Assembly: GCA_903958395.1 (NCBI GenBank)
Contig: CAJBSZ010000101.1
Location: 3,894 to 67,893 of the forward strand
Length of the DNA: 64,000 bases
Direction: 5' to 3'
From: an uncultured bacterium
GTDB taxonomy: Bacteria > Verrucomicrobiota > Kiritimatiellia > CAIKKV01 > CAITUY01
In this document: positions 25,181 through 61,412 of the stretch, piece by piece
How positions within the stretch are numbered: position 1 is the first letter of the stretch
Layout of the letters: each line of letters begins with the position of its first letter
The notes under the pieces: model-generated
Told to the model about the DNA's origin: nothing
What the model saw: the letters and a program-made list of their open reading frames with translations, nothing else
Databases searched by the model: none
Position numbers and translations under genes: made by a program

Positions 25181-27553
25181 TTATTTGTCCCTCGCCAGGA
25201 TGTGGATTGCGACCCACTTCCCCTGAGAATAGTTGAAGCCCGGGATGATATCCAGCGTTTGAATTCCAGGGGTGTTCAAGGCCTCCCGGAAGGGGTTCAG
25301 TCGGGTTTCCGTGACGACCAGGATTCCTTTCCCGGGTGCCGCCGCCCAGGCCGGGAGGTCGGGCCCCTCGAGGGAAATGAGGGGCGCTTTCCTGCCCAGA
25401 TAAAAATTCAGGCTCGGTTCGCCGTACCCGCAGGTGGTTACCGGGGTGTCCGGGCTGGCTTGTTCCTGGATAAAAGACGCGATGAGCGGTGCCACTTTAT
25501 AGGATTCCACTGCGGGGAGCAGGAACAATGCGGTGGAAAGAAAAGCCGTCATCATGCCCGCGATCAGGATTCCGGCCACCGTCCCGTGTCGGGCGCGCTG
25601 GTAATGTCGCCACACCAGAAAGACCATGGTGAGAAAAATGACTCCGACTCCCGTGGCGGGAACTCGTACTCCGAAAACTGGGAGGAACCAGGGTACGCTG
25701 ATCAGGGCGAGGCCGAGACTGAGGCCGACCAGAAGAAATAGACCGAGCCCGATCCGGGCGGCAAGGGTTCGGTTTCCGGCCAGCCCCTCACTCATGGCCC
25801 GCTGAAGTCCCAGCGCCGTGGCAATGGCCAGCGCCGGCCAGGCGGGCAGGATGTAGTGGGGCAGTTTGGTCGCCACCAGACTCATCAGGAGAATGACCGG
25901 CACTCCCCAGCAGAGAAGAAGTTTTCTCCCGCTCCCTTCAGGGGAGCGGGTTGGGGTGAGGATGCTGCGTCCGGAAAAGAGTCGCGGCAGATAGAGTGTC
26001 CATGGGAAAAAAGCTAGGAGAATGACCGGCAGATAATAGAAATAAAACACAAAGGACTGTCCGCCGTGGCTTTCCATGGCATTCAGGGAGCGGGCGACGA
26101 CATGTTTCCCAATACCCAGACGCAGAAACTCGCCGTTGGTTGCGGCATTGGCCGGAAGGCCCCACGCCAAAAACAACACCGTGGCCGATGCCACGGCGAA
26201 GATAAGCCATCCCAGATAAGGGAGCGGACGGAGAACTCCTCCTTTGGCAAAGATCATGATGGCGGCTATGACCAGGAGCGGGACGGCTAGCCCAACCGGG
26301 CCTTTTGTCAGGATGGCCCCCGCCAGCGCGAGGATCATCAGGGGAAGGTGCCAGACCTTGAATCCCCGGAACCATGACAATAGGAAGGTTGAGATGGCCC
26401 CGGTGATGCAGGCGAGGAGCAGGGCGTCGGTTGTGGCGGCGGTTCCGCTGACGGCCATGAGGGGGGAGAGCATCAGGATCAGGCCTGCTATGAGGGCCGG
26501 CTTGGGGCCGGTCAGGCGGCGGGCAATCCAGACTGTGAGCAGGGCTGTGATCAGCGTGGCGATGGGCGCTACCAGGCGGCAGGCCAGTTCGGAGGGGCCG
26601 AGGAGGCGGACCGGCAGTGACATGAGCCAGTAGATCAGGATGGGTTTATCGGCCCGCAACTGGCCATTGAAGGTGGGGACGAGATAGTTTCCGGATTCCA
26701 CCATCTCGACGGTCGCACGCGAAAACCGGGGCTCATCGCGATCCCACAGCGACGAGGCGGCGCAGAGCGAGAGGTAGAGAGTGAAAATGAGTGCGAAAAG
26801 CAAAATGGAACTTCGCATGGGTTTTTTCTGCCATGCAGGAAAAAGACGGGCGATCAACAGGAAGCCGCCCAGTGGGCCCCAGATTCGAAGGAAATCCAGA
26901 ACAAAGGGCGTGGCGCGGGCCCAGGCGAGGTTGATGACAGCAAAGGCGATAATCAGAATTCCGGCGATGAAAAACCAGCGGCGGGGCGGCCGCCAGTGCC
27001 ACCTTCGAAGAATGGCCAGGGCGACGGCGGAGGCGATCAGGCCGAGCGCGGCGCCCGTGAGGGCATCACTGGGGAAATGCCGGCCGTCATAGATCCGGCC
27101 GGTGATCACGCCGCCCGTGATCACGGCGGCGAGGGGTGCGGTCCACGGCGAAGCAGTCAGTAGGGGGGCGCAGAAAGCGGCGGCCGTGGCGACATCTCCG
27201 CTGGGAAATGACTCATCATTTGTAAAGGCCGGGCGTTCGCGTCCTACAACGATTTTGAGAGGTGTGACCAGAATGGCGACCACGCCGAGAGCCAGCAGGA
27301 TGTGCATCGCTTTCCGACGTGCCCCGGCCACTCCCAATGCAGCAATGATGAGGAGAATGACGTCGCCTTTCCCGAAAGGGCGGACGAGATTCAGGAGTTC
27401 CTGGACAATATGGATTTTTCCAACCCGGTGGGAAAAGGTTCGCAGGGTCTGGTAGATAGCGGAATCAAGCGGAAAAATCAGAGCCGCAACCGCCAGCAGG
27501 AGGGCGGCGGGCAGAAGGTAAGACACATAGACTGATTTAACCGGTTGCTTCAT
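25181..27553 (-). CDS. fusion protein: N-terminal PAP2 phosphatase + C-terminal ArnT-like (GT83) glycosyltransferase
   Basis: Residues ~90-170 carry the PAP2 motifs (RERPAF, PSGD, GRHFPSDA). The remaining ~600 aa form an ArnT-type GT-C with an ...RDEPRFSRATVEM... N-terminal motif and many TM helices. Confidence 0.7.
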   Translation of the reverse strand: MKQPVKSVYVSYLLPAALLLAVAALIFPLDSAIYQTLRTFSHRVGKIHIVQELLNLVRPFGKGDVILLIIAALGVAGARRKAMHILLALGVVAILVTPLKIVVGRERPAFTNDESFPSGDVATAAAFCAPLLTASPWTAPLAAVITGGVITGRIYDGRHFPSDALTGAALGLIASAVALAILRRWHWRPPRRWFFIAGILIIAFAVINLAWARATPFVLDFLRIWGPLGGFLLIARLFPAWQKKPMRSSILLFALIFTLYLSLCAASSLWDRDEPRFSRATVEMVESGNYLVPTFNGQLRADKPILIYWLMSLPVRLLGPSELACRLVAPIATLITALLTVWIARRLTGPKPALIAGLILMLSPLMAVSGTAATTDALLLACITGAISTFLLSWFRGFKVWHLPLMILALAGAILTKGPVGLAVPLLVIAAIMIFAKGGVLRPLPYLGWLIFAVASATVLFLAWGLPANAATNGEFLRLGIGKHVVARSLNAMESHGGQSFVFYFYYLPVILLAFFPWTLYLPRLFSGRSILTPTRSPEGSGRKLLLCWGVPVILLMSLVATKLPHYILPAWPALAIATALGLQRAMSEGLAGNRTLAARIGLGLFLLVGLSLGLALISVPWFLPVFGVRVPATGVGVIFLTMVFLVWRHYQRARHGTVAGILIAGMMTAFLSTALFLLPAVESYKVAPLIASFIQEQASPDTPVTTCGYGEPSLNFYLGRKAPLISLEGPDLPAWAAAPGKGILVVTETRLNPFREALNTPGIQTLDIIPGFNYSQGKWVAIHILARDK

Positions 27554-41760: not shown

Positions 41761-42663
41761 TTAGGGGGCGTGGCGGAGAGGGTCAAGAGGGGAATGAGCG
41801 GCCGCGACGGAGGTGGTGGACGATGTCGGGCAGGCGATGCAGCGGCAGAGTCCCGCCTCTTTCAGTGCCTGCGGGCCATCGAAGAAGGGCTTGTCCGGAA
41901 CCGTGAATCCCACCCGTCGGGCCTCATCCACCAGAATGTGAAGATAGTCTGTCATATGTCGCGCCGTGTAGGGATTGACATCATGAAAGTTCAGGATGAC
42001 GGTGAGCGAGGCCGCCGGACTGCCGCTGTGCCTGGCGTTTTGAAAGATCTCAATGAGGGCGTTCCGGATATGGATCCGCCGGAACAGGCTGCCCTTGTAG
42101 CCGTAGATCAGGCCGTCCCTCGCCCGGATATCCGCCATGAGCATGTGAAGTCCCAGCGCCTCATAGAGGGCCTGTGTCGTTTGATTTTTTGCCCCGAACG
42201 GCGGGCGCACGAATATCGGATCCGAGCCCGTGATGTCCCGAAGCAATGCCTGGGCCGCCTTGAGTCCTGCCTCCAATTCAGCGGGCGGGACTTTCCGGTG
42301 ATCCACATGGCCCCGGGGTGATACACTATGAATGCCGAGCAGGTGCTCCTCTGCGGCGAGGGCCCGCATGACGGCGTGGCCTTCCGGGGTGCCCCCTCCG
42401 CGCGGATGCCCCGTTTGGACAAAAAAGAGGGCCTTGGCGCCCGGTTGCACATCATTGGTGGCAAGTTGATGCAGGATGGCGAGGGTCGGGTTGTAGGGCT
42501 TTGTGATGCTGGGACCGTCATCAAAGGAGAGGATGAAGCGGATCACCGGCGGCGGAATGCCCGCATCATGCGCGGAGGGGGCGGGAATGGAGCGGCAGGA
42601 TGACAGGACTCCTGCCAGCAGGATCAAGCCCGACAGCTGTGCTGGAATCGCCGGGGATTTCAT
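41761..42663 (-). CDS. polysaccharide deacetylase (NodB-homology) lipoprotein
   Basis: Signal peptide with an LSSC lipobox, then the SFDDGP catalytic motif of carbohydrate esterase family 4; ATGA overlap with the activase gene. Confidence 0.65.
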   Translation of the reverse strand: MKSPAIPAQLSGLILLAGVLSSCRSIPAPSAHDAGIPPPVIRFILSFDDGPSITKPYNPTLAILHQLATNDVQPGAKALFFVQTGHPRGGGTPEGHAVMRALAAEEHLLGIHSVSPRGHVDHRKVPPAELEAGLKAAQALLRDITGSDPIFVRPPFGAKNQTTQALYEALGLHMLMADIRARDGLIYGYKGSLFRRIHIRNALIEIFQNARHSGSPAASLTVILNFHDVNPYTARHMTDYLHILVDEARRVGFTVPDKPFFDGPQALKEAGLCRCIACPTSSTTSVAAAHSPLDPLRHAP

Positions 42664-43634
42664 CGGGAGCCTCCCGCCTGAACCCCTTGTTCCCATTTCC
42701 GGCAGCGTCCCCCGCTGCGGCCCAGGGATTCGTCATGATCCAGGATCTCTATCACCTCGCACTGGTTCGGGCAGTCGTTGCACCGGAAGCCGCGTGTGGC
42801 GATCTCACGGTCACAGAGGCTGTAACCACGAAAACGGGTTCGGATCGGATTGGCGCGGGCTGCGAGCAGGGCCGCGCCATAAGCACCCATGACCATGTTG
42901 TGTTGCGGGATGATGACCTCGGTCTGGAGAGCCTCATTGAAGGCCCGGCGGATTCCCCGGTTGGCGCTGACCCCGCCCTGCAGGACGATGGGGGGGCGGA
43001 TTTCCTTTCCGGCGCAGACATTGCTGAGGAAGTTGCGCACCATGGCCTGGCACAGGCCCATGACGATATCGTGCTGCTGGTGGCCGGCTTGCTGCTTATG
43101 GATCATGTCGGATTCGGCAAAGACGGTGCAACGCCCCGCAATGGTGGTGGGATCGCTCGAGAGGAGCGCCCGTTCGCCCAGTTCCTCAATGGAGAGGCTG
43201 AGTCGCTTGGCTTGTGAATCCAGAAAACTTCCCGTACCCGCGGCGCAGATCAGGTTCATGGCAAAGTCCACCACCACGCCGTTGCGCAGGATCGTGACCT
43301 TGCTGTCCTGCCCCCCGATTTCAAAAATGGTGTTCGCCTCCGGGTGCAGATGCAGCGCAGCCCGGGCATGGGCGCTGATCTCATTCTTCACGATGTCCGC
43401 CCCGACGACGGCTCCGATCAGGGTGCGGGCACTCCCCGTGGTGCCGACTCCGGCGATTTCCAGGGTGCCGGGAACCGTCTGGCGCATCTCCAGAAGTGCT
43501 TTCTGAACGGAGTGGATCGGATTGCCATCAACCCGCCGGTAGGCGGTGAAGAGGACCGTCGAGCCGGAATCAATCAATACCAGATTGGTGCTGATCGAGC
43601 CGACATCAATCCCGAGATAGGCTTGGGTTGTCAT
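42660..43634 (-). CDS. BadF/BadG/BcrA/BcrD-type ATPase (HgdC-like activase of acyl-CoA dehydratase/reductase systems)
   Basis: AYLGIDVGSISTNLVL ASKHA-fold start and IFEIGGQDSKV motif; C-terminal Cys pair consistent with a bridging [4Fe-4S] cluster. Confidence 0.75.
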   Translation of the reverse strand: MTTQAYLGIDVGSISTNLVLIDSGSTVLFTAYRRVDGNPIHSVQKALLEMRQTVPGTLEIAGVGTTGSARTLIGAVVGADIVKNEISAHARAALHLHPEANTIFEIGGQDSKVTILRNGVVVDFAMNLICAAGTGSFLDSQAKRLSLSIEELGERALLSSDPTTIAGRCTVFAESDMIHKQQAGHQQHDIVMGLCQAMVRNFLSNVCAGKEIRPPIVLQGGVSANRGIRRAFNEALQTEVIIPQHNMVMGAYGAALLAARANPIRTRFRGYSLCDREIATRGFRCNDCPNQCEVIEILDHDESLGRSGGRCRKWEQGVQAGGSR

Positions 43635-44704
43635 GATGAGGCCTGCTTTCTTCGTTCCCGCAGAATGTCTGTAAAGGCTTCCAACCGGGTGACGATCCCG
43701 ACATGGCTGCTGTGTTCGTCAAATGACAGTTCGAGAATGGGGATCGAGTGGTCCTGGCTGATCTTGCGCAGGATCGGGCGGATGGTGATTTCCGGCATAC
43801 AGCCGGTGGGGGCGATATGAATGACCCCGTCATAGTGCTCCTGGGCGCAGCGCAGGGTGTAGGCCACGGATTCCAAGGCGTGGCCGCCCACCCGCGACTT
43901 GAGATAGGGACGCGCAAGCCGGTTCAGGGAGTCACGGGAATCCGGGCTCCGGAATCCGATGTGGAAGATTTTAGCCAGTTCGTTTCCGAGCAGGAAAAAA
44001 TTCTGAACCTCGACGCCCAGGCTGCCCAGGGTTTCTTCCAGGTTGTGGTTCAGATAACTGTCCCGCAGGATTGAGGCTTCGCCCAGCAGTCCGATTTTCA
44101 GGGGCCTGGCCGCTGCGTCGGTGGGGACGGTGTGGAAGCGTGCGGGAATCGTCCGGGACAGGGCCCGGATGGCAGGCACGGTTCGGGCCTCGTCCAAATC
44201 CTTGAGGCACGTATTCATGAGGCGGGTGGTGTCGCCGGTGTGGAGCTCCCGTGCCCGGGTTTCCCAGGCCAGCTTTTCAATGGCGTCCACGGCATGAACC
44301 TTGAAAAAAGCGCGGCCGCAGCAGCGGAGGAAATCGCCCATCGTGGGGTCGAAATGGCGGATCAGGGGCGGCTTGATCCCGTCATAACCCAGTCCAAAGA
44401 TGAACAGATTGAATCCGCGATCCCTGAGGATTTTCTGCTGCAGTTCCCGGTAGTACCGGAGCCGGCAGGTGCCCACGCTGTTGACCATGACCCCGTATTC
44501 CACGCCTTCCATGGCCGCCTTGATGAAATAGCCGGTCGTAGCCTTAAAGGCCAGACAGCTGAACTCGGGCGAGGCGTCCGTCCCGAGTTTCATGATTTCA
44601 GGCGTGGTGCAGCGGGTGCTCCACGGGGTGACTCGCAGGCACTCCACGGAGGCGGCCAGCGCAATCGAATAGTTTCCCCAGGGGGGTATGGCCAGGGCTG
44701 TCAT
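43631..44704 (-). CDS. DUF2229/COG3580-81-type protein (uncharacterised partner of HgdC-like activases)
   Basis: Cys-containing motifs (GTCRLRYY, RCCGRA, PTGCMPE); start trimmed to the ATG at 44704, which abuts the upstream stop. Confidence 0.55.
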   Translation of the reverse strand: MTALAIPPWGNYSIALAASVECLRVTPWSTRCTTPEIMKLGTDASPEFSCLAFKATTGYFIKAAMEGVEYGVMVNSVGTCRLRYYRELQQKILRDRGFNLFIFGLGYDGIKPPLIRHFDPTMGDFLRCCGRAFFKVHAVDAIEKLAWETRARELHTGDTTRLMNTCLKDLDEARTVPAIRALSRTIPARFHTVPTDAAARPLKIGLLGEASILRDSYLNHNLEETLGSLGVEVQNFFLLGNELAKIFHIGFRSPDSRDSLNRLARPYLKSRVGGHALESVAYTLRCAQEHYDGVIHIAPTGCMPEITIRPILRKISQDHSIPILELSFDEHSSHVGIVTRLEAFTDILRERRKQASS

Positions 44705-44705
44705 G

Positions 44706-47153
44706 TTACCATCTCGTTGAATCCACAAATGCCTCCAGCCGGGTATCCGTTCCGGCCTGTGCGGCGTGTTCATCCACCACTAAAGTCATGGTGGGAATCC
44801 CTTTTGTTTTGAGTATGTCGCGGTTGAATTCCATCACAATGGAGTCGCATCCGCAATTGAAGGAGGTGAGTTGGATGACGGCGGCGCATTCAGCCGCATC
44901 CAGGGTCTTGAGATGGTGGATCATTTTTCCGCAGGTGTCCCACTTGATGTTGCCCGTCGGCATTTCCTCGCCGTCAAAGGGCATCAGGTCAACATCCACA
45001 TCGAGTCGTTTCAAGGTGGCGAGAATGGGGCCGGAAATATAGTCGTCGTGGAGATTGTAGGGATGGCTGATGACCAGGAGTCTTTTCCGTGCCGGACCCG
45101 GGGGGCGGACGGGCGGACGGCGCGCCTGGGCGAGGGCGGCGAGGGCGGCATCGGCGGCGGTGCACGTCAGGGCTTCCTCCGCGCCAAGGCGGCGGCCCAG
45201 TTCCAGCAGGGAGTCGCGCAGGGGCGTTATGGTTTCATTGATATCAAGGCTCAGGATCCGGGTGCGGTTCCCGAACTGGGCCTCGGCAACATCGGGCAAA
45301 GCGGAAAGTTTGGGGCAGGCAATGTGTCCCTTCAGGCCCGACAAAAGACGTGGAACAAAAAGCCGATCCACTTTACCGGCGAGTTCGGCCAGGTGGGCGT
45401 CGAGTAGTTTGAGTGGCAGGCAATGTTCCGATTCCGAGATCAGGACGGCCTGCTCGACCGTGTGACGGGTTGAAGCGCCGGACATTACGGGGGTGTGTCC
45501 GAGCTGGGTGAAGAAGGTTTCGAAAAGGGAGGGATAGTAAAAATAATACAGGGCGCGGGGGATGCCGATGGTCAGCGGCCTGAAACCTGTGCCATCCACC
45601 ACCGTTTTCAAAGCGGTGAAAGCGTCTGGGCGCATCTCCTGGAGAATCATGAGGCTGGCGTTGACGGCGGCCTTGGTGGCCATGGGCACTCCGCCCCCGT
45701 ACTCCGCCCATTGGCCGCCCAGCAACAACCGTTTGACGGGGGTCGTGAGAGTGGCGAGGCGGGCGTGGATGTTTTTTTGGGTCGGCTTGTGTCCCATGAT
45801 CGAGCCGTCCCGGTTTCCCGTGTAGCGGTGGAACGTAACCGGAGTGGCCACCTCCCTGACCTCGATGTGGCGGCGAAGGCCGGGGATCAGCAGGCGCTCG
45901 ACCCGGTCGAGAATCGTGTCGGTGAATTCCTGCTTATACCGGCGATAGGCTTCCCCGCGCTCCAGACCGGGTCCGGTTTCCCACTGATTGTGATGGGACA
46001 GGTAGGAGGGGCACTGGATGAGGAGAGTGCCTTTCCCCGGAGGGGCCAGGGAGGGATCGCGGAGAGAAGGGGCCAGAACGCTGATCAGGGTGGAATGGGC
46101 TTCTCCACTGACCCGATCTTCCAGGGGTATGGAGTCCTCAGTCAGGCGAACCAGGGACTCATCCAATCCAAGCGAGGCGGGGGGGCAATCCAGTCCCAGA
46201 TAAATTGAGAAGCTGGAGTAATACAGATCTGCATGACGAAGGCGCTTGAGTATTCTGGCGGGAACGCTGGCAGGGGGAAGCATCGTGGTGAAGAGCTGTT
46301 CCACATCGCAGGCGGCGATGACGTAGCGGGCGTGCACGGTGTCGCCGGTGGCGAGCCGGACTCCGGTCGCTTTTTTGGAGGCGTTGACGAGGACTTCACG
46401 GACGCGTTGGTTCAGGGTGATTCGGCCGCCGTTTTCGGTGATTTTCCGGCACAGCCAGTCCACCATTACGGCGCAGCCTCCCTCAGGCGGCTTTTGGAAA
46501 TCACCTGTGAAAGCGAACCCCAGCGGGACGAGAACCGACATCATGGTGCCATCGGAGTGAAAGAGATTCAGGAGTTCGCGGGTCTTGAAATAGCGGGTTA
46601 ATCCCCTGGCGGCCGGGGTTGATACCATATGGCGGATGGGCCAGACCCAGCCCGTCATGGCCAGGCCGTGATGCAGGAGTTCGCGGGGGGACATGGTTTT
46701 CACCGACCGCATGCGGTTGTCGAGGAACAGCATATGATGGCCGAGGCGTTCGGCGTCCCGGAAGAGTTTCTGAATCCCCTTTGATTCATGGGGAAAGTCC
46801 TGGATCAGTTGATCGCGAAGTTCCAGAGGGTTCGAGGTGAGCAGATAATTATGACCGGTGTTTTTATAGCGATGAATCCGCTGGAGCGGGACATAGCGCG
46901 GGCCGTCGTTGCCAATGGCGTGCTGAATACGGGCGAGAAAGCCGCCCGGGCGGCATTGGTTCAGCCATTCAAGGGAGGCGTCAAACGTGAATCCCTTGCG
47001 GTGGAACGAGGCCAGACAGCCGCCCGCCTGTGATTCTGTTTCGAAGAGCTCGACACGGAGACCGGCCTTCGACAGCAGGGCGGCGGCAGTTAATCCTGCA
47101 ATACCACCCCCGATGATCACGACATCGCAGTGAGTTGGACGGCCCATAGTCAC
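44706..47153 (-). CDS. fusion: CrtI/phytoene-desaturase-family FAD oxidoreductase (N-terminal ~500 aa) + DUF2229/HgdB-like domain (C-terminal ~300 aa)
   Basis: N-terminal CDVVIIGGGIAGLTAAALLSKAGLRVELFE dinucleotide-binding motif and the amine-oxidase/CrtI-like body. The C-terminus carries TIGIPRALYYFYYPSLFETFF and SFNCGCDS motifs typical of activase-associated DUF2229 proteins. Confidence 0.6.
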   Translation of the reverse strand: MTMGRPTHCDVVIIGGGIAGLTAAALLSKAGLRVELFETESQAGGCLASFHRKGFTFDASLEWLNQCRPGGFLARIQHAIGNDGPRYVPLQRIHRYKNTGHNYLLTSNPLELRDQLIQDFPHESKGIQKLFRDAERLGHHMLFLDNRMRSVKTMSPRELLHHGLAMTGWVWPIRHMVSTPAARGLTRYFKTRELLNLFHSDGTMMSVLVPLGFAFTGDFQKPPEGGCAVMVDWLCRKITENGGRITLNQRVREVLVNASKKATGVRLATGDTVHARYVIAACDVEQLFTTMLPPASVPARILKRLRHADLYYSSFSIYLGLDCPPASLGLDESLVRLTEDSIPLEDRVSGEAHSTLISVLAPSLRDPSLAPPGKGTLLIQCPSYLSHHNQWETGPGLERGEAYRRYKQEFTDTILDRVERLLIPGLRRHIEVREVATPVTFHRYTGNRDGSIMGHKPTQKNIHARLATLTTPVKRLLLGGQWAEYGGGVPMATKAAVNASLMILQEMRPDAFTALKTVVDGTGFRPLTIGIPRALYYFYYPSLFETFFTQLGHTPVMSGASTRHTVEQAVLISESEHCLPLKLLDAHLAELAGKVDRLFVPRLLSGLKGHIACPKLSALPDVAEAQFGNRTRILSLDINETITPLRDSLLELGRRLGAEEALTCTAADAALAALAQARRPPVRPPGPARKRLLVISHPYNLHDDYISGPILATLKRLDVDVDLMPFDGEEMPTGNIKWDTCGKMIHHLKTLDAAECAAVIQLTSFNCGCDSIVMEFNRDILKTKGIPTMTLVVDEHAAQAGTDTRLEAFVDSTRW

Positions 47154-47584
47154 GCCAGAGTGAAAAACGCGGCGGCATCCAGGATGGAAAGCCCGTTTTT
47201 GTGAAGGGCTTTGGAGGCCTGGTCGGGCTTGTCCACCCGGACAATCATGATTGCGTTACTGCCCCGCTTAAGGGTAAAGGCGTACATGTATTCGATGTTG
47301 ATGGCATTGGGTTCCAGGATGGCCAGAATGCTTTCCATACCCCCGGGATGATCCGGAATTTCAATGGCCAGTACATCGCTGATAGTCACCACGCAGCCGG
47401 CCTTCTCCAGTACGTCCCGGGCCTTTTCCCACTCCCTGATCATGATCCTCAGAATGCCGAATTTTCCAGTGTCCGCGAGGCAGAGGGTTGGGATATTGAT
47501 GCCTGCCGCCGCCAGCACCTTGCAAGGATGGCCGAGGCGGCCGGGTTTGTTTTCCAGACAGACAGACAGTTGTTTCAGTGTCAT
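47150..47584 (-). CDS. tandem ACT-domain protein
   Basis: Two ~65-aa beta-alpha-beta-beta-alpha-beta ACT-like units; 4-bp overlaps on both sides. Confidence 0.6.
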   Translation of the reverse strand: MTLKQLSVCLENKPGRLGHPCKVLAAAGINIPTLCLADTGKFGILRIMIREWEKARDVLEKAGCVVTISDVLAIEIPDHPGGMESILAILEPNAINIEYMYAFTLKRGSNAIMIVRVDKPDQASKALHKNGLSILDAAAFFTLA

Positions 47585-49608
47585 ACGCCCTCCTTTCCGG
47601 TCAACAGTTGTGAAGCCATGAAATGTTTCCGAATCGCACCGGTAAGGGCCATGGGATCGGTCCGGTTCAGCCGGTCAAGCACCCGTTCCCACCGATAGGC
47701 AAAACTGCCCTTTTCATCACGCGGGCGTTGTTTAAAAAGCGTATCGAAGGACCGTTTTCGCCGTGTATAATCCTGTTTCACATGAAGAAACCGTTCCGTA
47801 AATGAGGCAAGATAAGCCTCCAGCACTTCTCCGGGAGAGGAAAAAAAGGGGAGTCGGCGTCGGATGGGCTCCGCATAGGCCTCCGCAAAGGAAGCCAGAT
47901 CAGACTGATAATCCGTGAAGGTGCCGGTGTGATCGGCGACGATGATTTCCCTGGGCATGCCGAACTCGTCCTCTATCAAAACCTCATCGCCATCGTCGAA
48001 CAGCACGGCGTTTTTCAGGTTCAGGCGGCCTGTGATGATATTGGACGCGGCGGCCCGGCCCAGTAACCTCGCAAAGGCGAGGGAATACGTGAGGCTCTGG
48101 AAACGGGAACGGGGGATCTTGTCGGTGGCCATGCCGGAGAGATAGTCGCGTTCGAAATAGGTGGACCAGATCTGCTGGCCGTCATACCGGGTTCCGTGGT
48201 AGTGCTCGCTGATTTTGCGGGTTGTGATGCGGGCGGGCAGGTTCATGCCCAGCTGACGGCAGCCCAGTCTGCGATCCAGGATATATTCGGTGTAGTCCTC
48301 CGCCTCCATGATGGCGGGGAGGAGATCCTTGCCCTCGTTCAGGTGTTCCCGGATTCCCCATTTCTGCATGCGAAGAATACGGACAACAGGGTGCGGCGAA
48401 CTGTTTTGTTTGATCTCCGCCACATACACATCGCGGCGGCCGGAGCTCGAGGGTCGGCGTGATAGCGAGCCGATGACCCGGCCGACATTGACATAATCAA
48501 TATCCCCGAATTCGCGAAGGAAATTAAAGATGAACCCGCGTGCCTTTTCGTCGCAGAGGATCCTCAATTCGGAATCAGGGGGTGAACGATCCGCTTCATC
48601 GAAAAGGCTGTCGAACATCAATTCCCCCTCTTCGATGCGGCCGCCGGGGAGCCATTCGATCTGCATGAAGAATTCGGAACTCAGTCCGAGGATGGTTTCT
48701 TCGGGAAGGGCTTCGCCTCCCTGACCGATCAGGCATGAAAACATCAGGTTTCGCCAGTCGGGATTATCGGGATTGTCTTCCCTCATTTCCGGCCGCACGG
48801 CATCGCGAAAGGCCGCTTTGAGGTGTTCATAACAGGTGCGGATATCCGGAGGAGATTGATCCATGGGTTCGCAGGGTTTGAAGCTGGAATGGTCGAATGA
48901 TTTGTCGGTGGAAAAAAAGGCTACTTCGGGGTGGCCCATGCGGTTGTAGCGGCATGAAAAATCCCGGATTTCAATCAGATGTGCCTGGAGTTCATTGTCC
49001 GGCAGGGTTTCGAGTTCACAGAACTGCTGGTAGGTCAGGAATCGCGTGCCGATGTCGCGACTGTAATAGTAGATGGAACGGCCCCCGATCGGCAGCATGG
49101 CTGAGGCGATCATGCGTTTCATTTCATCAGGACTTTGGGGGAGCAGGGCAATCCGCCAGTTTTCGCCACGTTCCTTGATGGCATAGCGGACTTTTTCATT
49201 CATGAGGTTGAGAAACTTGATTTTCTGCTTGGAGACCAGTTCCTGAAGCAGGTCGTCGGCTTCGAAGGCCAGTGCCATGTTCTCGGGATCAGGCCGGATC
49301 AGGATGCTCCCGGGGTCCATGATCAGGTCAACCGACAGCTGCCATTCCAGCATCTCGTCCTCTTCGGACAGCGGGGGCTGGTTGGCTTGTTTCCGGGTGG
49401 CGTTAAGATCGGCGATATAGGCAAAGCGCTGGGTGGCGTGGATGCCGGGCAGGGTGACGAGGGTCCGGCTCCGGGGAAAGATCGTGCCGATCCGTGAGAT
49501 CAATCGTCCCTGCTGATCCTTCGCAAGCGGGTGTTCACCTAGAATTCGAATAGTCATTCCCTCGCATACTACCAATCCCTCCCTGTATTGAACAATCTGC
49601 TTTTTCAT
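47581..49608 (-). CDS. large hypothetical protein; C-terminal region with AceK-like (isocitrate dehydrogenase kinase/phosphatase family) motif, tentative
   Basis: No standard motif in the N-terminal half. The C-terminal half has AAASNIITGRLNLKNAVLFDDGDE, which resembles the AceK catalytic-loop/metal-binding segment AAANIFPGDMLFKNFG...FYDYDE (recalled from E. coli AceK). Start placed at ATG 49608. Confidence 0.35.
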   Translation of the reverse strand: MKKQIVQYREGLVVCEGMTIRILGEHPLAKDQQGRLISRIGTIFPRSRTLVTLPGIHATQRFAYIADLNATRKQANQPPLSEEDEMLEWQLSVDLIMDPGSILIRPDPENMALAFEADDLLQELVSKQKIKFLNLMNEKVRYAIKERGENWRIALLPQSPDEMKRMIASAMLPIGGRSIYYYSRDIGTRFLTYQQFCELETLPDNELQAHLIEIRDFSCRYNRMGHPEVAFFSTDKSFDHSSFKPCEPMDQSPPDIRTCYEHLKAAFRDAVRPEMREDNPDNPDWRNLMFSCLIGQGGEALPEETILGLSSEFFMQIEWLPGGRIEEGELMFDSLFDEADRSPPDSELRILCDEKARGFIFNFLREFGDIDYVNVGRVIGSLSRRPSSSGRRDVYVAEIKQNSSPHPVVRILRMQKWGIREHLNEGKDLLPAIMEAEDYTEYILDRRLGCRQLGMNLPARITTRKISEHYHGTRYDGQQIWSTYFERDYLSGMATDKIPRSRFQSLTYSLAFARLLGRAAASNIITGRLNLKNAVLFDDGDEVLIEDEFGMPREIIVADHTGTFTDYQSDLASFAEAYAEPIRRRLPFFSSPGEVLEAYLASFTERFLHVKQDYTRRKRSFDTLFKQRPRDEKGSFAYRWERVLDRLNRTDPMALTGAIRKHFMASQLLTGKEGV

Positions 49609-49645
49609 GGTGACAGTTGAGTCGGATTGAATACGATGGGGGGCT

Positions 49646-50566
49646 ATGAATTCGGTATACACCACAACGATTACCCGGGAAGCGCGCACGCGCGGGATTC
49701 AAATTGAAGTGATTGATCCCCGGACTCCCATTTTCGTGCTCAGGCATAAGGGAAAGTCAATCCGGTGTTACAACGCCCTGACGGATCGGGTTGGGGCGGT
49801 GACTTTTCAGATGACCCAGAACAAGGCCCTGGCCAATGTCTTTCTCAAGTCCCGCGGGTTTCCCGTTCCGGCCCAGCAACTTTTCACGGAGCCGGTGTCG
49901 GCGGAGCGTTTTTTGAAGCGATACCGCAGTATTGTTGTTAAACCCTGCTCCCAATGGGGCGGGCGCGGGGTGTCGGTGGCGGTGAAAACGGCTGAGGAAT
50001 TGGCCTGTGCCGTGCGTTTTGCGAAGCGGTTTGAGGAGGAGATCATTCTCGAACAGTATGTCGAGGGAGTGGACTACCGCCTGATATTTGTGGATTTCAA
50101 ATTCGTAGCGGCTATTCGCCGGCGATCCGCCCATGTGGAGGGGAATGGCCGGGATTCAATCCGGAACCTGGTGCAGGCAAAGAACCGGCAGGAACGGCGC
50201 GTTGATCCGAGTCATATCATTCCGCTCGATGCCGAGACGGCTCGCAACCTCAAGGTTTTAGGCCTGTCGTGGGAGCAGGTTCCTGCGGCGGGGCGGGTTG
50301 TTCGCGTCAGGTTGACCTCCAACTACCATACTGGCGGTGATGTGGATGTGGTGACCCATACGGTCAATCGGAAGCTGGTGGCCTTGGCCAGGCGTGCCGT
50401 GAAAGCGCTGAACGTTCCGGTCATTGGCATTGATTTCCTGGTGAATGAGGCAAGCGGTCGGTCGTGGCTGATTGAGTTGAGCCCCGATCTGGCAATTTCC
50501 CCGCCCGAGGGCGAAGAGGTGGCCCGGCATTTCATGAACTTCCTGTTCCCGGAGACAAAACGATGA
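49646..50566 (+). CDS. stand-alone cyanophycin-synthetase-like (CphA G-domain/RimK-type) ATP-grasp ligase
   Basis: IVVKPCSQWGGRGVSVAV...IILEQYVEGVDYRLIFVDFKFVAAIRR closely follows the CphA ATP-grasp core KP.dGN.GRGV...vvE.yi.G.DyRllVv...vAA..R. Confidence 0.65.
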   Translation: MNSVYTTTITREARTRGIQIEVIDPRTPIFVLRHKGKSIRCYNALTDRVGAVTFQMTQNKALANVFLKSRGFPVPAQQLFTEPVSAERFLKRYRSIVVKPCSQWGGRGVSVAVKTAEELACAVRFAKRFEEEIILEQYVEGVDYRLIFVDFKFVAAIRRRSAHVEGNGRDSIRNLVQAKNRQERRVDPSHIIPLDAETARNLKVLGLSWEQVPAAGRVVRVRLTSNYHTGGDVDVVTHTVNRKLVALARRAVKALNVPVIGIDFLVNEASGRSWLIELSPDLAISPPEGEEVARHFMNFLFPETKR

Positions 50567-51864
50567 AATCCTGTCATCTGGTTGGCGTTGCGGGTGTGGG
50601 GATGAATGCCTTAGCTCAGGCACTCAAGGGGGGTGGGTGGGCGGTCAGCGGCTCGGACCGTTATGAGGATCAGGGCCAGGATCTTGAGGTGATCCGGAAG
50701 CTGAAGGAGGCGGGAATTCGATTTTATCCGCAGGATGGATCCGGGATATCCCGAGAGACGGGTGCGGTGGTCGTGAGTACCGCGATTGAGAAGGATAATC
50801 CCGATATCGTCGCTGCGGAAAGGCTTGGGGTCCCTGTGCGGCACCGGGCCGAAATGCTAGCCGAACTCGTTCAGGGAAAGAAAACGGTGGCGATTGCGGG
50901 GACCTCCGGAAAAACGACGGTAACGGGCATGGTCGGCTGGCTTCTCGAGCAACTCGGAGCTGATCCCACGGTGGTCAATGGCGGGGCTCTGGTGAACTGG
51001 GCGGATGATCATCATGTGGGAAACGCGCGAACAGGCGGCTCAGGACTTTGCGTGATTGAGGTCGATGAGAGTGATCGCTCGCTCCTGCGGTTTTCACCCG
51101 ACCGGGCCTTGATTACCAATATGTCGGCTGATCATTTCAGCCTGGAGGAGACCGTCGGGCTTTTCAGCCAGTTCAGGAGTCAGGTCCGGTGCGATTGTAT
51201 TGCAGGGTGGGATCCCGGAATGCCGTGGCAGGGCCTGAAGCCGGTGCTGAGCCGGACCGGGTGCCGCTTCGCTTATGGCGGGCTTGAGTTCGAAATTTCG
51301 TTACTAGGGGCACACAACGCCGAAAATGCGCTTCAGGCGGTTGTGCTGTGCCAGCGAATGGGTTTTGACTTAGGTCGCATTCGCGATGCCCTGGCTCAAT
51401 TCAAGGGTATTCAGCGGCGCCTGGAGCGGGTGGGGGAAGCCGGCGGGGTGACGGTGGTGGATGAGTATGCCCATAACCCGGCGAAAATTTCGGCCGCCTG
51501 GCGGGCTGTGGCTCCTTATTATTCGCGGGTCACCGCGTTCTGGCGCCCGCATGGATTCAAGCCGTTGTCCCTGATGTTCAACGATCTGGTGGCGATGTTC
51601 GGGGACGTATGCCGCCCGCAGGACCGGCTTTTTCTGATGCCGGTGTATTACGCGGGAGGGACGGTGAGTAAGGCGATGGACTCGGATGTGCTTGCGACGG
51701 CGTTGCAGGCGCGCGGGGTGCCCGCCGTATGGGTTCCGGATTACGACCGGTTGATGTCCGGGATTATGAAAGACAGTCAAGCGGGCGAGGTCGTGCTATG
51801 CGTGGGCGCCCGGGACCCCGGCATCCCCCGGTTTGCCCGCGAGTTGGTGACTCGTCTGGGATGA
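50563..51864 (+). CDS. MurC/Mpl-family Mur ligase (paralog of the fused murC)
   Basis: HLVGVAGVGMNALAQALKGGGWAVSGSD Rossmann N-domain, VAIAGTSGKTT P-loop and a VVDEYAHNP C-domain motif; it resembles Mpl/MurC rather than MurE/F. ATGA overlap with the ATP-grasp gene. Confidence 0.7.
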   Translation: MKSCHLVGVAGVGMNALAQALKGGGWAVSGSDRYEDQGQDLEVIRKLKEAGIRFYPQDGSGISRETGAVVVSTAIEKDNPDIVAAERLGVPVRHRAEMLAELVQGKKTVAIAGTSGKTTVTGMVGWLLEQLGADPTVVNGGALVNWADDHHVGNARTGGSGLCVIEVDESDRSLLRFSPDRALITNMSADHFSLEETVGLFSQFRSQVRCDCIAGWDPGMPWQGLKPVLSRTGCRFAYGGLEFEISLLGAHNAENALQAVVLCQRMGFDLGRIRDALAQFKGIQRRLERVGEAGGVTVVDEYAHNPAKISAAWRAVAPYYSRVTAFWRPHGFKPLSLMFNDLVAMFGDVCRPQDRLFLMPVYYAGGTVSKAMDSDVLATALQARGVPAVWVPDYDRLMSGIMKDSQAGEVVLCVGARDPGIPRFARELVTRLG

Positions 51865-59298: not shown

Positions 59299-60504
59299 CT
59301 ATTTTCCAAGAACCTTCCTGAACTGCTGGGTTAGCAGGGGGAGGATCTCAAACAAGTCGCCCACGATGCCGTAGGTGGCGACCTTGAAGATGGGGGCATC
59401 CGCGTCCTTATTGATGGCCACAATAATATCCGAGGACTGCATTCCGGCAAGATGCTGGATCTGGCCGCTGATTCCCACCGCGATGTAGATCTTGGGGCAG
59501 ACCGTTTTCCCGGTCTGGCCAACCTGATGCGAATAGGGGATCCAATTCGAATCCACGGCGGCACGCGAGGCACCCACACCCGCGCCGATCACATCAGCCA
59601 GTTCGCGCAGCAGCGCGAAGTTTTCAGGAGTCTGGAGGCCGCGACCGCCCGACACAATGATGTTGGCTTCCGCGATATTCATCGTGGTTTCCACCTCGGG
59701 CACGAATTTCAGACGACGTGCCTTGGATTGAAGCAGGACTTCCGCGATGGTTTCCATCGAGACTTCCCCCTTGCGGGCGGGGTTGACTTCGGCTTCCTTC
59801 ATCACCTTGTGCCGCACCGTGGCCATCTGGGGCCGCGCGTTCGGGGTTTCAATGGTGGCCATGATGTTGCCGCCGAACGCGGGGCGGGTCTGGAGCAGAT
59901 TCAGGGTCTTGGGGTCAATCGCCAGTCCGGTACAGTCCGCTGTCAAACCGGCATTCACCCGTACGGCCACTCGCGACACCAGGCTGCGCCCGATGGTCGA
60001 GGCGCCGCAGAGGAACACATTGGGCTTGTGCCGTTTGACAAGGTCGATCAGGACATTGGCGTAGGATTCATCCTGGAAATGCTCGAGCGCGGGACGATCG
60101 ACCAGGTACACCTTGTCGGCGCCGCGGGCGATCAGTTCATCGGTCTGCTTCTGAACATTGCTGCCCAGCAGTACGGCGCACAGCTTCATGCCCAGCGAGT
60201 CGGCCAGCTTGCGCCCTTCCCCCAGCAGTTCGAAGGTGATGGACTGAATCACGCCGTCATGCTGCTCGGCGAACACCCATACATCCTTGAAAGATGACAG
60301 GTCGATTGTGGCGGCGGATTTTTCCTTCATCCAGATGGCCTCGAACTTGCAGGAGGCGACGCAGGCGCCGCACAGCGTACACTTCATGAGGTCAATGACG
60401 GGGACTGTTTTGCGTTCCGTCTGGGTGATGGCACCGAACGGACAGGCTTTGACGCAGGCGCCGCAATAAACGCATTTCTCGTTGATTTTGATGGGATCGC
60501 TCAT
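59299..60504 (-). CDS. etfA: electron transfer flavoprotein alpha subunit with N-terminal 2x[4Fe-4S] ferredoxin domain
   Basis: N-terminal [12 protein letters not shown] and [11 protein letters not shown] ferredoxin motifs, followed by the EtfA FAD-binding domain. Confidence 0.8.
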
Positions 60505-60514
60505 GGTTGGTTCC

Positions 60515-61309
60515 TTAGTTGGCGGCGCCCAGAATGGCGTCCTTCAGTTTGGCTATGAGTTGGGGGACGACTTCCGAGGGTTCGCCCTTCAGCATTTCGC
60601 CACCCTGCCGAGCTGGCGGGGTGAAAATCTTGACCACCTTGGTGGGTGAGCCTTCCAGCCCGATGCACTTGGGGTCGCACTGGAGATCGGCGGCCTTCCA
60701 GGTGGTGATGACCGCCTTCTTGGCGGCCAGCTTGCCCTTCAGGGATGGAAGACGCGGCTCATTGATTTCCTTTACGACTGTGAGCACGCAGGGCAGGGGA
60801 GCCTGAATGACTTCGTAGCCGTTTTCCATCAACCGTTCCGCAACGATCGTTTTTTCATCAATCGATTCGATCTTGCGGACATAGGTGATCTGGGGGAGAT
60901 CCAGATGAATGGCAATGCCGGGCCCGACCTGAGCGGTGTCGCCGTCGGAAGCCTGTTTGCCGCAGAGAATGATGTCAAAAGCGCCGATTTTCCGGATGGC
61001 CATGGCGAGCGTGTAGCTGGTGGCCCAGGTGTCGCTACCGGCGAAGGCCCGATCGGACAGCAGGATGCCGTCATCGGCGCCCATGGAAATGGCTTCCCGC
61101 AGGGCGGCATCAGCCTGGGGCGGCCCCATGGAGAGCACGGTCACGGTGCCGCCTGTCTTGGCTTTCAGGCGGAGGCCTTCCTCGATGGCGTACATGTCAA
61201 AAGGGTTGATAATCGCGGCTACCCCGTCCCGCATCAGGGTGTTTGTTTCCGGATTGATCTTCACATCAGTGGTTTCCGGAACCTGTTTGATACAAACAAC
61301 GTATCGCAT
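60515..61309 (-). CDS. etfB: electron transfer flavoprotein beta subunit
   Basis: MRYVVCIKQVPE... EtfB N-terminus; start trimmed to the internal ATG. Confidence 0.8.
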   Translation of the reverse strand: MRYVVCIKQVPETTDVKINPETNTLMRDGVAAIINPFDMYAIEEGLRLKAKTGGTVTVLSMGPPQADAALREAISMGADDGILLSDRAFAGSDTWATSYTLAMAIRKIGAFDIILCGKQASDGDTAQVGPGIAIHLDLPQITYVRKIESIDEKTIVAERLMENGYEVIQAPLPCVLTVVKEINEPRLPSLKGKLAAKKAVITTWKAADLQCDPKCIGLEGSPTKVVKIFTPPARQGGEMLKGEPSEVVPQLIAKLKDAILGAAN

Positions 61310-61412
61310 ACTGTTCTCCTTTATAAAACGGGGGCGCATTATATGAATTAAACGGTGAGATGCAAGGCGGAATTACCGGTGTAAATAGCTCAACCGTGGA
61401 TTCATGGATATA

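Follow-up and report, generated by a model that had tools for sequence, protein, structure and literature searches.

By sequence, the locus described here, from an uncultured anaerobic Verrucomicrobiota bacterium, is assigned to the BCR/HAD radical-enzyme superfamily: its three genes encode a self-contained, ATP-driven iron-sulfur enzyme from the DUF2229 branch, to which the ether-lipid synthases of bacteria, PlsA/PlsR and Ger, also belong. It is unusual in being split into three genes with only one activase, and in the fusion of a flavoenzyme to one of the subunits. We tentatively propose that it is a lipid carbonyl reductase, a split version of the PlsAR/Ger type, and that its flavin domain would handle the resulting C=C, possibly turning a vinyl ether into an alkyl ether, a reading that we regard as quite possible though short of probable. 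The features of the locus, numbered within the 64-kb window (the whole stretch of DNA that was analysed), are as follows.

47150..47584, minus strand: ACT-domain-pair protein, 144 aa (Pfam ACT_8), upstream and translationally coupled; outside the conserved core.
44706..47153, minus strand: fusion gene, 815 aa, CrtI-family flavoenzyme, linker and Red1; GTG start, TAA stop.
45636..47153, minus strand: FAD domain, residues 1-506; GGGIAGLTAAALL dinucleotide fold and C-terminal GGxWAEYGGGVPMA flavin motif.
45582..45635, minus strand: inter-domain linker, about residues 507-524 (about 20 aa); kept among fusions in the alignment.
44709..45581, minus strand: Red1 domain, residues 525-815; DUF2229 at 528-721 and HGD-D C-terminal motif at 748-812.
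43631..44704, minus strand: Red2, 357 aa, second HAD-like subunit and counterpart of PlsR/'Red2'; ATG 1 nt past the fusion stop.
42660..43634, minus strand: activase, 324 aa, single BcrAD_BadFG ATPase domain at residues 7-258; 4-nt overlap between its start and the Red2 stop.
42687..42842, minus strand: Cys-rich C-terminal tail of the activase, about residues 265-316; C-x10-CxxCxxxC-x17-RSGGRCRKWE.
41761..42663, minus strand: polysaccharide-deacetylase lipoprotein (Pfam Polysacc_deac_1); ATGA overlap with the activase stop.

The three minus-strand ORFs of the initial annotation (47153..44706, 44773..43631 and 43634..42660) are all found in place, and the fusion, Red2 and activase genes are all translationally coupled. 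The Red2 start was set at the ATG at 44704 by homolog alignment, giving 357 aa, the ORF itself opening from 44773. The flanking genes are less constant. The ACT-domain-pair gene is confined to relatives that are at least about 90% identical (L001, L002, L016), with an SLT gene in its place in L006, and the deacetylase gene is an accessory limited to closer relatives (L001, L002, L006, L007, L016, L056) and missing in L008 and L009. A ferredoxin-fused EtfA is also encoded in the window, which we count as a sign of an anaerobic setting.

The N-terminal domain of the fusion protein belongs to the CrtI family, having the full-length Amino_oxidase fold (residues 18-500 of 815, E 1e-22) and the N-terminal FAD dinucleotide motif (NAD_binding_8 at 13-68; both Pfam). 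Its highest NCBIfam and PDB likenesses are to CrtI, CrtD and carotenoid isomerase, and homologs are labelled 'prolycopene isomerase' at JGI, as might be expected if it were a true carotenoid desaturase or isomerase, with the Fe-S module reducing or dehydrating an isoprenoid. We consider this very improbable. Every carotenoid family score lies far under its curated NCBIfam cut-off (crtI_fam 133.5 versus 238, CrtD 115 versus 550, carotenoid isomerase 108 versus 587), as does that for HpnE (55 versus 283), and the domain reaches no NCBIfam equivalog cut-off. No crtB, crtE or cyclase gene was seen around any locus examined, neither the window region nor any of 15 annotated related loci showed carotenoid or squalene biosynthesis genes, and the recurrent neighbours are instead fatty-acid and phospholipid genes. 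The flavoenzyme thus differs from CrtI, CrtD, CrtISO and RetSat, FAD-dependent enzymes that desaturate, isomerise or saturate polyenes, in its scores, in its lack of nearby carotenoid genes and in its fusion to an Fe-S subunit, and its clade, set apart from these enzymes, is uncharacterised and found mostly in anaerobes. The earlier suggestion of an ATP-dependent reduction of a lipid-like substrate is reasonable, given that the flavoenzyme family recurs by lipid genes; for the isoprenoid or carotenoid substrate that it also entertained we found no evidence.

Comparative sequence data show that the flavoenzyme-Red1 fusion is genuine, without a missed stop or frameshift, as had been claimed from the single ORF. 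The full-length fusion is kept as one ORF in 18 protein clusters (812-844 aa, 51-93% identity, 99-100% coverage) that come from different assemblies and sources (JGI, NCBI, ENA, Logan). In an alignment of 34 sequences, 19 fusions and 15 unfused Red1 proteins, the linker consensus among the fusions reads ...ILxxxRPxAFxxLKxVVDGTG-xPLTIGIPRAL..., and independent contigs repeat the same three-gene order. An AF2 model of the 815-aa fusion has a pLDDT of 87.9 and a pTM of 0.76. It is hardly credible that an assembly or sequencing error has run two genes together into this ORF: we found no support for it, and it is ruled out by so many independent and divergent clusters, from several assemblers, with the linker kept. 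Some 'stand-alone' Red1 entries in databases are fragments that start inside the flavin domain (P0122, P0123, P0125, P0128). The fusion is restricted to a Verrucomicrobiota-like clade, and the flavoenzyme family is far commoner than the three-gene module.

Red1, the C-terminal part of the fusion, matches DUF2229 (Pfam PF09989) at 528-721 with E 2.4e-30, covering profile positions 1-212 of 218, which bears out the similarity first ascribed to it; an HGD-D C-terminal piece follows at 748-812 (18.2 bits, under the 28.4 cut-off, profile positions 276-341 only). Red2 matches HGD-D (PF06050) at 29.8 bits against the cut-off of 28.4, over C-terminal profile positions 241-342 only. The initial annotation spoke of two DUF2229-type partners; for Red2 this stands at the family level, its homologs often bearing precomputed PF09989 and PF06050 matches, and only weakly for the Red2 sequence itself. 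The Cys motifs that it quoted are present and conserved, with Red1 C578, C613, C767 and C769 invariant in 34 of 34 sequences and GTCRLRYY and (T/A)GCMPE invariant in Red2. The top structural match of a Red1-only AF2 model is 3o3n_B (HadC; E 2e-8, probability 1.00, TMq 0.54), with MbdON, DCCP and BzdNO next. Red1 and Red2 each have at least three invariant Cys and the HadBC/BCR/DCCP fold.

The activase is well matched by BcrAD_BadFG (PF01869, E 1e-46) and TIGR00241 (195 bits), and by the structures 4eht (HadI, E 9e-35) and 1hux (HgdC, E 2e-33). Its NLICAAGTG and AGRCTVFAES align to the cluster-Cys motifs of HgdC/HadI, both bridging-cluster Cys being kept, and it would work as a homodimer bridging one [4Fe-4S] cluster. 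The Cys-rich tail is invariant among six aligned homologs. The original description, of an intact CrtI/amine-oxidase-type flavoenzyme covalently joined to a DUF2229-type Fe-S partner, a second partner of this type and an HgdC-like activase, is correct.

An activase with DUF2229 and HGD-D units is how both PlsA/PlsR, the anaerobic plasmalogen synthase, and Ger, the glycerol ester reductase, are built according to published work (PMC13159169; PMC12838417), and an activase with only DUF2229 partners is therefore not the oddity it was first taken for; the locus is colinear with a Pls-type protein. The comparison used the 1475-aa Listeria monocytogenes WP_014600632.1, presumed to be a Pls ortholog by its architecture and by review statements. 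The activase profile matches this protein at 317-640, Red1 at 666-970 (i-E 2e-32) and Red2 at 1022-1240 (i-E 1e-19), and the Red1 family HMM also matches a Paraclostridium BBD protein at residues 601-912 (i-E 2e-48). Common to the locus and the Listeria protein are Red1 C578, C613 and C767, two Red2 Cys and CxxCxxxC...C, the activase tail aligning to the part of the Listeria protein that links its second ATPase domain to DUF2229. The locus therefore has the activase domain, DUF2229 reduction domain, second reduction unit and cluster Cys with Cys-rich linker that mark PlsA/PlsR and Ger. Validated Ger and the Pls of Listeria and Enterococcus have tandem activation domains (BB), whereas the locus has one 324-aa single-domain activase, which can be aligned to either activation domain of the Listeria protein, B1 or B2, and better to B2. 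An activase homodimer could stand in for the two tandem domains. Homologs with one B domain have been reported (PMC13274423). At the Pfam and profile level, and as compared through the presumed Listeria ortholog, the relation to validated PlsA and Ger appears distant, a point against our proposal.

PlsA/PlsR is Clostridium perfringens CPE1194/1195, with single-gene forms in Enterococcus, Listeria and Bifidobacterium. The locus resembles it in having a BcrAD_BadFG activase, a DUF2229 'Red1' and an HGD-D-type 'Red2', and in being a self-contained operon, often in a housekeeping context; by analogy, oxygen sensitivity and dependence on ATP and ferredoxin would be expected of its enzyme. It differs in having three genes rather than one or two, in the order Red1-Red2-activase, one ATPase domain rather than two, an extra invariant Cys in Red1 and a fused 506-residue CrtI-family flavoenzyme. 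The extra Cys, C769 of the 'CGC' motif, is a feature by which the split family can be told from Pls-type proteins. Ger (Thermotoga maritima Tmari_0479; Desulfatibacillum alkenivorans SHJ90043) shares the superfamily and the Pfam set (BBDH...) with the locus and, in the absence of oxygen, converts esters to saturated 1-O-alkyl ethers (PMC13159169), the product also proposed here, but it consists of a single long polypeptide that has two activase domains and lacks a flavin domain. Ger and PlsA are indistinguishable by sequence (PMC13274423).

Classical HAD, BCR and DCCP enzymes are much more distant from Red1 and Red2 in sequence (E 0.007 or worse), yet the fold matches. The likeness is confined to the C-terminal motif (E 0.007-0.14); neither subunit has a full-length PF06050 match and the PDB sequences gave E 0.14 and no match, although the Red1-only model has the catalytic-subunit fold of a classical dehydratase. 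The (R)-2-hydroxyacyl-CoA dehydratases and activators HadBC/HadI and HgdAB/HgdC, class I benzoyl-CoA reductases and the double-cubane cluster protein DCCP/DCCP-R are thus like the locus in their activase and in the Red1 model fold, and unlike it in that the locus is of the DUF2229 branch. The operon and its flanks, both here and in related loci, showed no CoA-transferase, 2-hydroxyacid dehydrogenase or acyl-CoA dehydrogenase/ETF genes, and there are no aromatic-degradation genes near the locus.

The Red1-Red2-activase operon is widespread among anaerobe MAGs, mostly unfused, and its gene order is constant in every locus, out of about 50, that is long enough for at least two of the genes to be seen. 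Many modules, and all of those that are fused, lie in unrelated housekeeping contexts, which fits a self-contained enzyme like plsAR/ger. Most modules have no flavoenzyme within 10 kb, which, like the wider spread of the flavoenzyme family, counts against our proposal; in L036 and L039 an unfused flavoenzyme ortholog (47-48% identity) immediately adjoins the module in convergent orientation. Unfused modules and stand-alone flavoenzymes recur by a ketosynthase/ACP/acyltransferase/B12-radical-SAM lipid cluster, and a KR-amine oxidase-KS-ACP-acyltransferase cluster adjoins the module in some genomes and the flavoenzyme in others. Elsewhere the flavoenzyme family has a CDP-diacylglycerol pyrophosphatase or a fatty-acid desaturase as neighbour, and one member (P0081) is a PAP2 fusion. 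For our proposal, the link between flavoenzyme and module lies in the fusion in 18 clusters, the adjacency in L036 and L039 and the common cluster type.

The association with ACP/KS clusters suits thioester substrates equally well, which counts against our proposal. The module may be a HAD-like radical dehydratase or reductase of acyl-ACP or acyl-CoA, with the CrtI-like domain desaturating, saturating or isomerising the chain and no ether bond made; the intermediate would come from an aryl-polyene-like, 'Kuenenia/Desulfotalea-type' FAS cluster of KS paralogs, ACP, AMP-ligase, FabA/ApeI dehydratase, thioesterase and two B12-radical-SAM enzymes. To our knowledge, CoA thioesters are the substrates of all characterised non-Pls members of the superfamily. 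Such clusters directly adjoin unfused modules (L027, L034, L039, L043, L030, L038/L040/L041 and the P0134 locus), and the same type of cluster is found 2-5 kb away from stand-alone homologs of the flavoenzyme. Also in favour, Rattray et al. 2009 proposed that clusters of radical-SAM, phytoene-desaturase-like and fabF-paralog genes make anaerobic polyunsaturated lipids (PMC2649909). The extended FAS clusters of Kuenenia stuttgartiensis and Desulfotalea psychrophila, of the aryl-polyene-like type, have the same kinds of gene as the module-adjacent cluster, namely fabF paralogs, ACP, radical-SAM (B12) enzymes, two phytoene-desaturase-like genes and a polysaccharide-deacetylase-like gene, a likeness judged by gene kind; HAD-like and activase genes, however, go unmentioned in their gene lists (PMC2649909). 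We judge a thioester substrate somewhat unlikely, as the ketosynthase/ACP cluster was not found in the 64-kb window, the housekeeping contexts argue against it, and the module is far closer in sequence to Pls-type proteins than to CoA-dependent HAD/BCR enzymes. Moreover, the clusters also encode PlsC-type and lipid-A-type acyltransferases, so that an esterified lipid, a possible substrate of the module, is expected anyway.

For the split ether-lipid enzyme, we propose a model where reduced ferredoxin or flavodoxin would load the activase, and ATP hydrolysis would inject a low-potential electron into the Red1/Red2 clusters. With this electron, the carbonyl of a lipid carboxylic ester, or a related one, would become a ketyl radical, from which reduction and water loss would then leave, as has been proposed for PlsAR, a C=C beside the oxygen, a 1-alkenyl (vinyl) ether. 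This double bond would be the target of the fused flavoenzyme, which would most likely saturate it as RetSat does, to give a 1-O-alkyl ether; isomerising or introducing it are less likely alternatives. The proposed mechanism would echo the logic of known HAD pathways, in which a flavin-dependent C=C (enoyl) reductase acts after a radical dehydratase.

The conversion of an ester to a vinyl ether needs two electrons, and activases of the BCR/HAD type deliver one per cycle. It is conceivable, if improbable, that the flavin domain is not a second catalyst and instead exchanges electrons or hydrogen atoms with the Red1/Red2 clusters, for example by supplying the second electron of ester reduction or by re-oxidizing the enzyme, which would cut the ATP cost or provide a connection to quinone or NAD(P)H. 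FAD and a cluster-binding domain share one polypeptide here, the pTM suggests a defined domain arrangement, and C769 sets the split family apart; unfused Red1, however, carries C769 too. CrtI-family enzymes have a substrate tunnel and we know of no pure electron-transfer members. The flavoenzyme family is also overwhelmingly stand-alone, in genomes and loci that lack the module, and must therefore have its own substrate.

A saturating role for the flavin domain meets its own difficulties. Its CrtI fold would suit a saturase, desaturase or isomerase alike, and Ger alone yields saturated ethers in E. coli (PMC13159169), so that a separate saturase is not strictly needed. Nonetheless, the enzyme that converts vinyl to alkyl ethers is called 'yet-unknown' by the field (PMC13274423), and owing to the fusion this CrtI-like flavoprotein family becomes a testable candidate for the saturation of vinyl-ether lipids. 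Since module and flavoenzyme both recur by the KS/ACP lipid cluster, the enzyme may in nature act on a specialised membrane lipid and not on bulk phospholipid. In cultured Pontiella strains no ether lipids were seen (PMC11868695), which counts against our proposal; beside this result we set a Red1 homolog (P0160) that comes from a Pontiellaceae MAG and not from a cultured strain.

The HgdC-type activase and the DUF2229 partner fused to a flavoenzyme, as described in the initial annotation, proved right in coordinates and content by ORF calling and by Pfam and NCBIfam searches. ORF calling in the window places them in a run of translationally coupled minus-strand genes reaching from a 702-aa ORF through a polysaccharide-deacetylase lipoprotein:

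49689..47581, minus strand: 702-aa ORF without a family match in Pfam or NCBIfam; 4-nt overlap with the ACT gene
47584..47150, minus strand: ACT-domain pair, 144 aa; 4-nt overlap with the fusion ORF
47153..44706, minus strand: fusion ORF, 815 aa; TAA stop, 1 nt, then the Red2 ATG
44704..43631, minus strand: Red2, the second HAD-like subunit, 357 aa; start set by homolog alignment; 4-nt overlap with the activase gene
43634..42660, minus strand: activase, 324 aa; ATGA overlap with the polysaccharide-deacetylase gene
42663..41761, minus strand: polysaccharide-deacetylase lipoprotein, lipobox LSSC; ATG overlaps the activase stop (ATGA)

The 702-aa ORF appears to head the same operon as the fusion, its stop overlapping the ACT gene start by 4 nt. 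Promoter and terminator scans gave signal at chance level.

Within the 815-aa protein, Pfam matches Amino_oxidase at residues 18-500 and NAD_binding_8 at 13-68, followed by almost the entire DUF2229 model at 528-721 (E 2.4e-30) and a C-terminal piece of HGD-D at 748-812. Alignment puts the end of the flavin domain near residue 506, from which a conserved linker of ~20 residues (…LKxVVDGTG…) leads to Red1, which begins ‘TIGIPRAL’. This architecture is kept as one ORF in 18 protein clusters from JGI, NCBI, ENA and Logan assemblies, 812-844 aa long, at 51-93% identity and 99-100% coverage. The fusion is thus genuine: these clusters and their conserved linker rule out that a stop or a frameshift was missed where the domains join, and leave a vanishingly small chance that it is an artefact and not one real gene.

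The closest genomes belong either to uncultured Verrucomicrobiota or to unclassified lake MAGs. At 74%, 54% and 52% identity, loci have only fusion, Red2 and activase, in that order, in common with the window, their other flanks being unrelated. Only nearer relatives retain the ACT-pair gene, the deacetylase gene and the 702-aa ORF, and on this limited conservation the three were rejected as core parts. The deacetylase lipoprotein stays with the operon where the relatives’ Red1 domain is at least ~68% identical, and a 648-aa counterpart of the 702-aa ORF, also without Pfam hits, lies upstream of the fusion in three related loci (L006, L007, L016). A ‘polysaccharide deacetylase-like’ gene, Kuste3351, also occurs in the Kuenenia lipid cluster (PMC2649909), a likeness that may be coincidence.

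An activase with only DUF2229 partners had been taken as an anomaly, a view not borne out, as the same arrangement is already published for the anaerobic plasmalogen synthase PlsA/PlsR and for the glycerol ester reductase Ger. PlsA/PlsR combines activation domains Act1/Act2 with reduction/dehydration domains Red1/Red2 (PMC12838417; PMC9702350), and Ger carries PF01869 twice, then PF09989 and PF06050 (PMC13159169). Of the earlier interpretation, the domains and their fusion stand and the premise of an unknown partner falls. Reference proteins of PlsA/Ger architecture came from tblastn of plasmid records, which yielded Listeria chromosome pieces under wrong labels and, on a Paraclostridium plasmid, BBD-type proteins: 1475 aa from Listeria monocytogenes (WP_014600632.1, presumed a Pls ortholog by architecture) and 1282 aa from Paraclostridium. 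HMMs of the three window families are colinear on the Listeria protein:

Listeria protein 317-640, second ATPase domain plus Cys-rich linker: activase HMM, i-E 7e-74
Listeria protein 666-970: Red1 HMM, i-E 2e-32
Listeria protein 1022-1240: Red2 HMM, i-E 1e-19

Like the split family, the Listeria protein has Red1 Cys 578, 613 and 767, two Red2 cysteines and the CxxCxxxC…C linker, whereas Cys 769 (‘CGC’) is peculiar to the split family. Given the colinear matches and these common features, we regard the locus as a split, single-activase relative of PlsAR/Ger; with Listeria and Paraclostridium as reference, its sequence places it much nearer to PlsAR/Ger-type proteins than to CoA-dependent dehydratases or reductases. 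The enzyme type is already known; neither its split form of three genes nor, most notably, the fusion to a flavoenzyme seems to have been reported, and we found no mention of the fusion in the few papers retrieved that name DUF2229.

The activase is a clear family member (BcrAD_BadFG E 1e-46; TIGR00241 195 bits), with HadI (E 9e-35), HgdC (2e-33) and MbdQ as nearest solved relatives, and the two [4Fe-4S]-bridging cysteines of HgdC align with its NLICAAGTG and AGRCTVFAES. Its 65-residue C-terminal tail, C-x10-CxxCxxxC-x17-RSGGRCRKWE, is invariant among homologs. This tail (42687-42842, minus strand) corresponds to the stretch that links DUF2229 to the second ATPase domain of the Listeria Pls-type protein (locus L069, ~5650-5920) and may form a fourth metal site, Fe-S or Zn; no description of the motif (CxxCxxxC…C) was found in the literature examined. 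Red1 has invariant cysteines at 578, 613, 767 and 769 (34/34 sequences). Red2 matches only the C-terminal third of HGD-D in Pfam (29.8 bits), its homologs commonly carry precomputed PF09989 and PF06050 hits, and their alignment reveals invariant SVEC, EF(S/A)C, GTCRLRYY and (T/A)GCMPE motifs. Solved HAD, BCR and DCCP structures are barely detectable from Red1 or Red2 by sequence (Red1 profile against DCCP, E 0.007, C-terminal motif only; Red2 against HadC, E 0.14). An AF2 model of Red1 alone (pLDDT 86.7) matches HadC (E 2e-8), the benzoyl-CoA reductase subunits MbdON and BzdNO, and DCCP.

An exhaustive Red1 search, with proteins clustered at 50%, returned 1651 representatives, of which 90 reach E ≤ 1e-30. 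Among the best 150 of the 1651, nearly all are stand-alone (290-340 aa) and a few are Red1-Red2 fusions (690-765 aa); one representative among the best matches, P0005, is the full-length flavin fusion. Another homolog (P0241, 585 aa) places ~290 uncharacterised residues before Red1. Across 53 loci from the metagenome scan, the order Red1-Red2-activase holds wherever a contig shows more than one of the genes. Named hosts of this three-gene module are MAGs of Kiritimatiellia, Pontiellaceae, Planctomycetota, Acidobacteriota and Dehalococcoidia; cluster members bear almost no organism names, and no cultured host of fusion or module was identified among them. The flavoenzyme is fused in the window’s clade (L001, L002, L006-L009, L016-L018; L019 may be a truncated fusion), follows the activase directly as a separate convergent gene in L036 and L039 (47-48% identity), and was not found within the available flanks of more than 10 other module loci, neighbourhood counts being approximate because longest-ORF calling on the fetched loci was crude and GC-rich antisense ORFs intrude. 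L065 (12288-12758) is closely syntenic with L036 (6749-8314) and lacks the flavoenzyme gene, a presence/absence polymorphism.

The flavin domain scores far under all curated CrtI-family cut-offs (crtI_fam, 133 vs 238; CrtD, 115 vs 550; carotenoid isomerase, 108 vs 587), and so represents an uncharacterised clade of the CrtI/CrtISO/RetSat superfamily. An isoprenoid substrate had been entertained initially; with such scores, a place for the locus in carotenoid or isoprenoid metabolism is highly improbable. Elsewhere the flavoenzyme family adjoins a CDP-diacylglycerol pyrophosphatase (one locus) and a fatty-acid desaturase (another). The 743-aa protein P0081 combines a flavoenzyme-domain homolog (49% identity) with PAP2/PAP2_3 lipid-phosphatase domains, a second and independent case of this family being fused with a lipid enzyme.

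Unfused modules frequently border on a lipid-type cluster (L027, L034, L039, L043, L030, L038/L040/L041 and the P0134 locus), and others lie amid unrelated housekeeping genes. The cluster holds ketosynthase paralogs, ACP, a PlsC-type acyltransferase, an AMP-ligase, a FabA/ApeI-like dehydratase, a 4HBT thioesterase, a GT2-DUF2062-lipid-A-acyltransferase protein, two B12-radical-SAM enzymes and a second, unrelated amine-oxidase. Clusters of this type also have stand-alone flavoenzyme homologs (60-63% identity) at a distance of 2-5 kb. Fusion, adjacency and common neighbourhood tie flavoenzyme family, module and lipid metabolism together. Similar to this cluster are the extended FAS clusters found in Kuenenia and Desulfotalea, for which a role as an anaerobic polyunsaturated-lipid or ladderane pathway has been discussed (PMC2649909). 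In L027 (9971-16048), two paralogous modules stand back to back at the end of a KS/ACP/acyltransferase/AMP-ligase/B12-radical-SAM cluster, the first as Red1-Red2-activase, the second divergent on the opposite strand (activase 47%, Red1 28% and Red2 25% identical to the window’s).

From the observed cofactor-binding features, family placement and gene linkage, we tentatively propose an activase-driven reduction of a lipid carbonyl to a C=C bond on which the flavin domain then acts. The homodimeric activase would take an electron from ferredoxin or flavodoxin and, on ATP hydrolysis, inject it into the Red1/Red2 clusters; that the fused flavin domain is itself an electron port seems decidedly improbable. 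A lipid carbonyl at an open iron site would become a ketyl radical, whose reduction and loss of water would leave a C=C beside oxygen, as proposed for PlsAR. The CrtI-like domain would work on this double bond, with saturation to an alkyl ether the favoured outcome, since its superfamily includes saturases and since, to our knowledge, a flavin-dependent C=C reductase comes after the radical dehydratase in all classical HAD pathways. Several observations speak against the ether reading: most modules have no nearby flavoenzyme; cultured Pontiella strains showed no ether lipids, and a Pontiellaceae MAG carries a Red1 homolog; and Ger alone gives saturated ethers in E. coli (PMC13159169). The main rival, which we consider somewhat less likely and still take seriously, has module and flavoenzyme tailoring ACP- or CoA-bound intermediates of the ketosynthase cluster, with no ether made. 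Such clusters adjoin many relatives, and the window has none: tblastn with six cluster proteins matched the fusion gene only. If the substrate were a thioester in an aryl-polyene-like cluster, the locus would still define an ATP-driven radical step new to the anaerobic biosynthesis of specialised lipids; our literature search found nothing on aryl polyene together with BcrAD_BadFG.

PlsA/Ger-type enzymes make the ether lipids of bacteria, the brGDGT palaeothermometer lipids among them, in anoxic settings. It is tempting to speculate, at quite long odds, that the CrtI-like domain of the fusion, and with it the large family of stand-alone homologs in anaerobes, is the bacterial vinyl-ether (plasmalogen) reductase still being sought, the split module making a 1-alkenyl ether from a lipid ester and the flavin domain saturating it on the same complex. 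Saturated alkyl ethers typify anaerobe ether lipids and brGDGT-type lipids, and such an enzyme would be a source of them, the fusion a ‘Rosetta stone’ giving functions to two widespread uncharacterised families, and its sequence a marker parting plasmalogen makers from alkyl-ether makers. By the field's own account, PlsA and Ger are indistinguishable by sequence, and the enzyme converting vinyl to alkyl ethers is unknown (PMC13274423); with both enzyme and marker missing, the fusion offers a concrete and cheap test. As this locus shows, enzymes of Pls/Ger type also come split into an operon of three genes, which is widespread in MAGs of PVC, Acidobacteriota and other anaerobes and is physically linked to one particular flavoenzyme family, and full-length Ger/PlsA queries with coverage thresholds likely miss this form.

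Divergent from the operon are an ATP-grasp gene (49646-50566, plus strand; cyanophycin-synthetase/N-acetylglutaminylglutamine-synthetase-like, TIGR03103 E 2e-73, under its cut-off) and the Mur-ligase-family gene it overlaps (50563-51864, plus strand). In L006 and L007, too, the pair adjoins the operon; it has the look of a cyanophycin-synthetase-like enzyme split in two. Two envelope- or lipid-related proteins, a 790-aa PAP2 and PMT_2 (glycosyltransferase 39-like) fusion (25181-27553, minus strand) and a B12-binding radical-SAM protein with DUF4080 (2079-3737, plus strand), have no detectable link to the operon. A 776-aa MurC-MurB fusion (20684-23014, minus strand) joins a complete three-domain MurC-like Mur ligase to FAD_binding_4 and MurB_C. 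An EtfA whose N terminus carries a 2x[4Fe-4S] ferredoxin domain (59299-60504, minus strand) adjoins a 274-aa ORF that is possibly EtfB (60515-61339, minus strand); such ferredoxin-fused EtfA is of the type found in electron-bifurcating ETF complexes, consistent with an anaerobic, ferredoxin-based metabolism.
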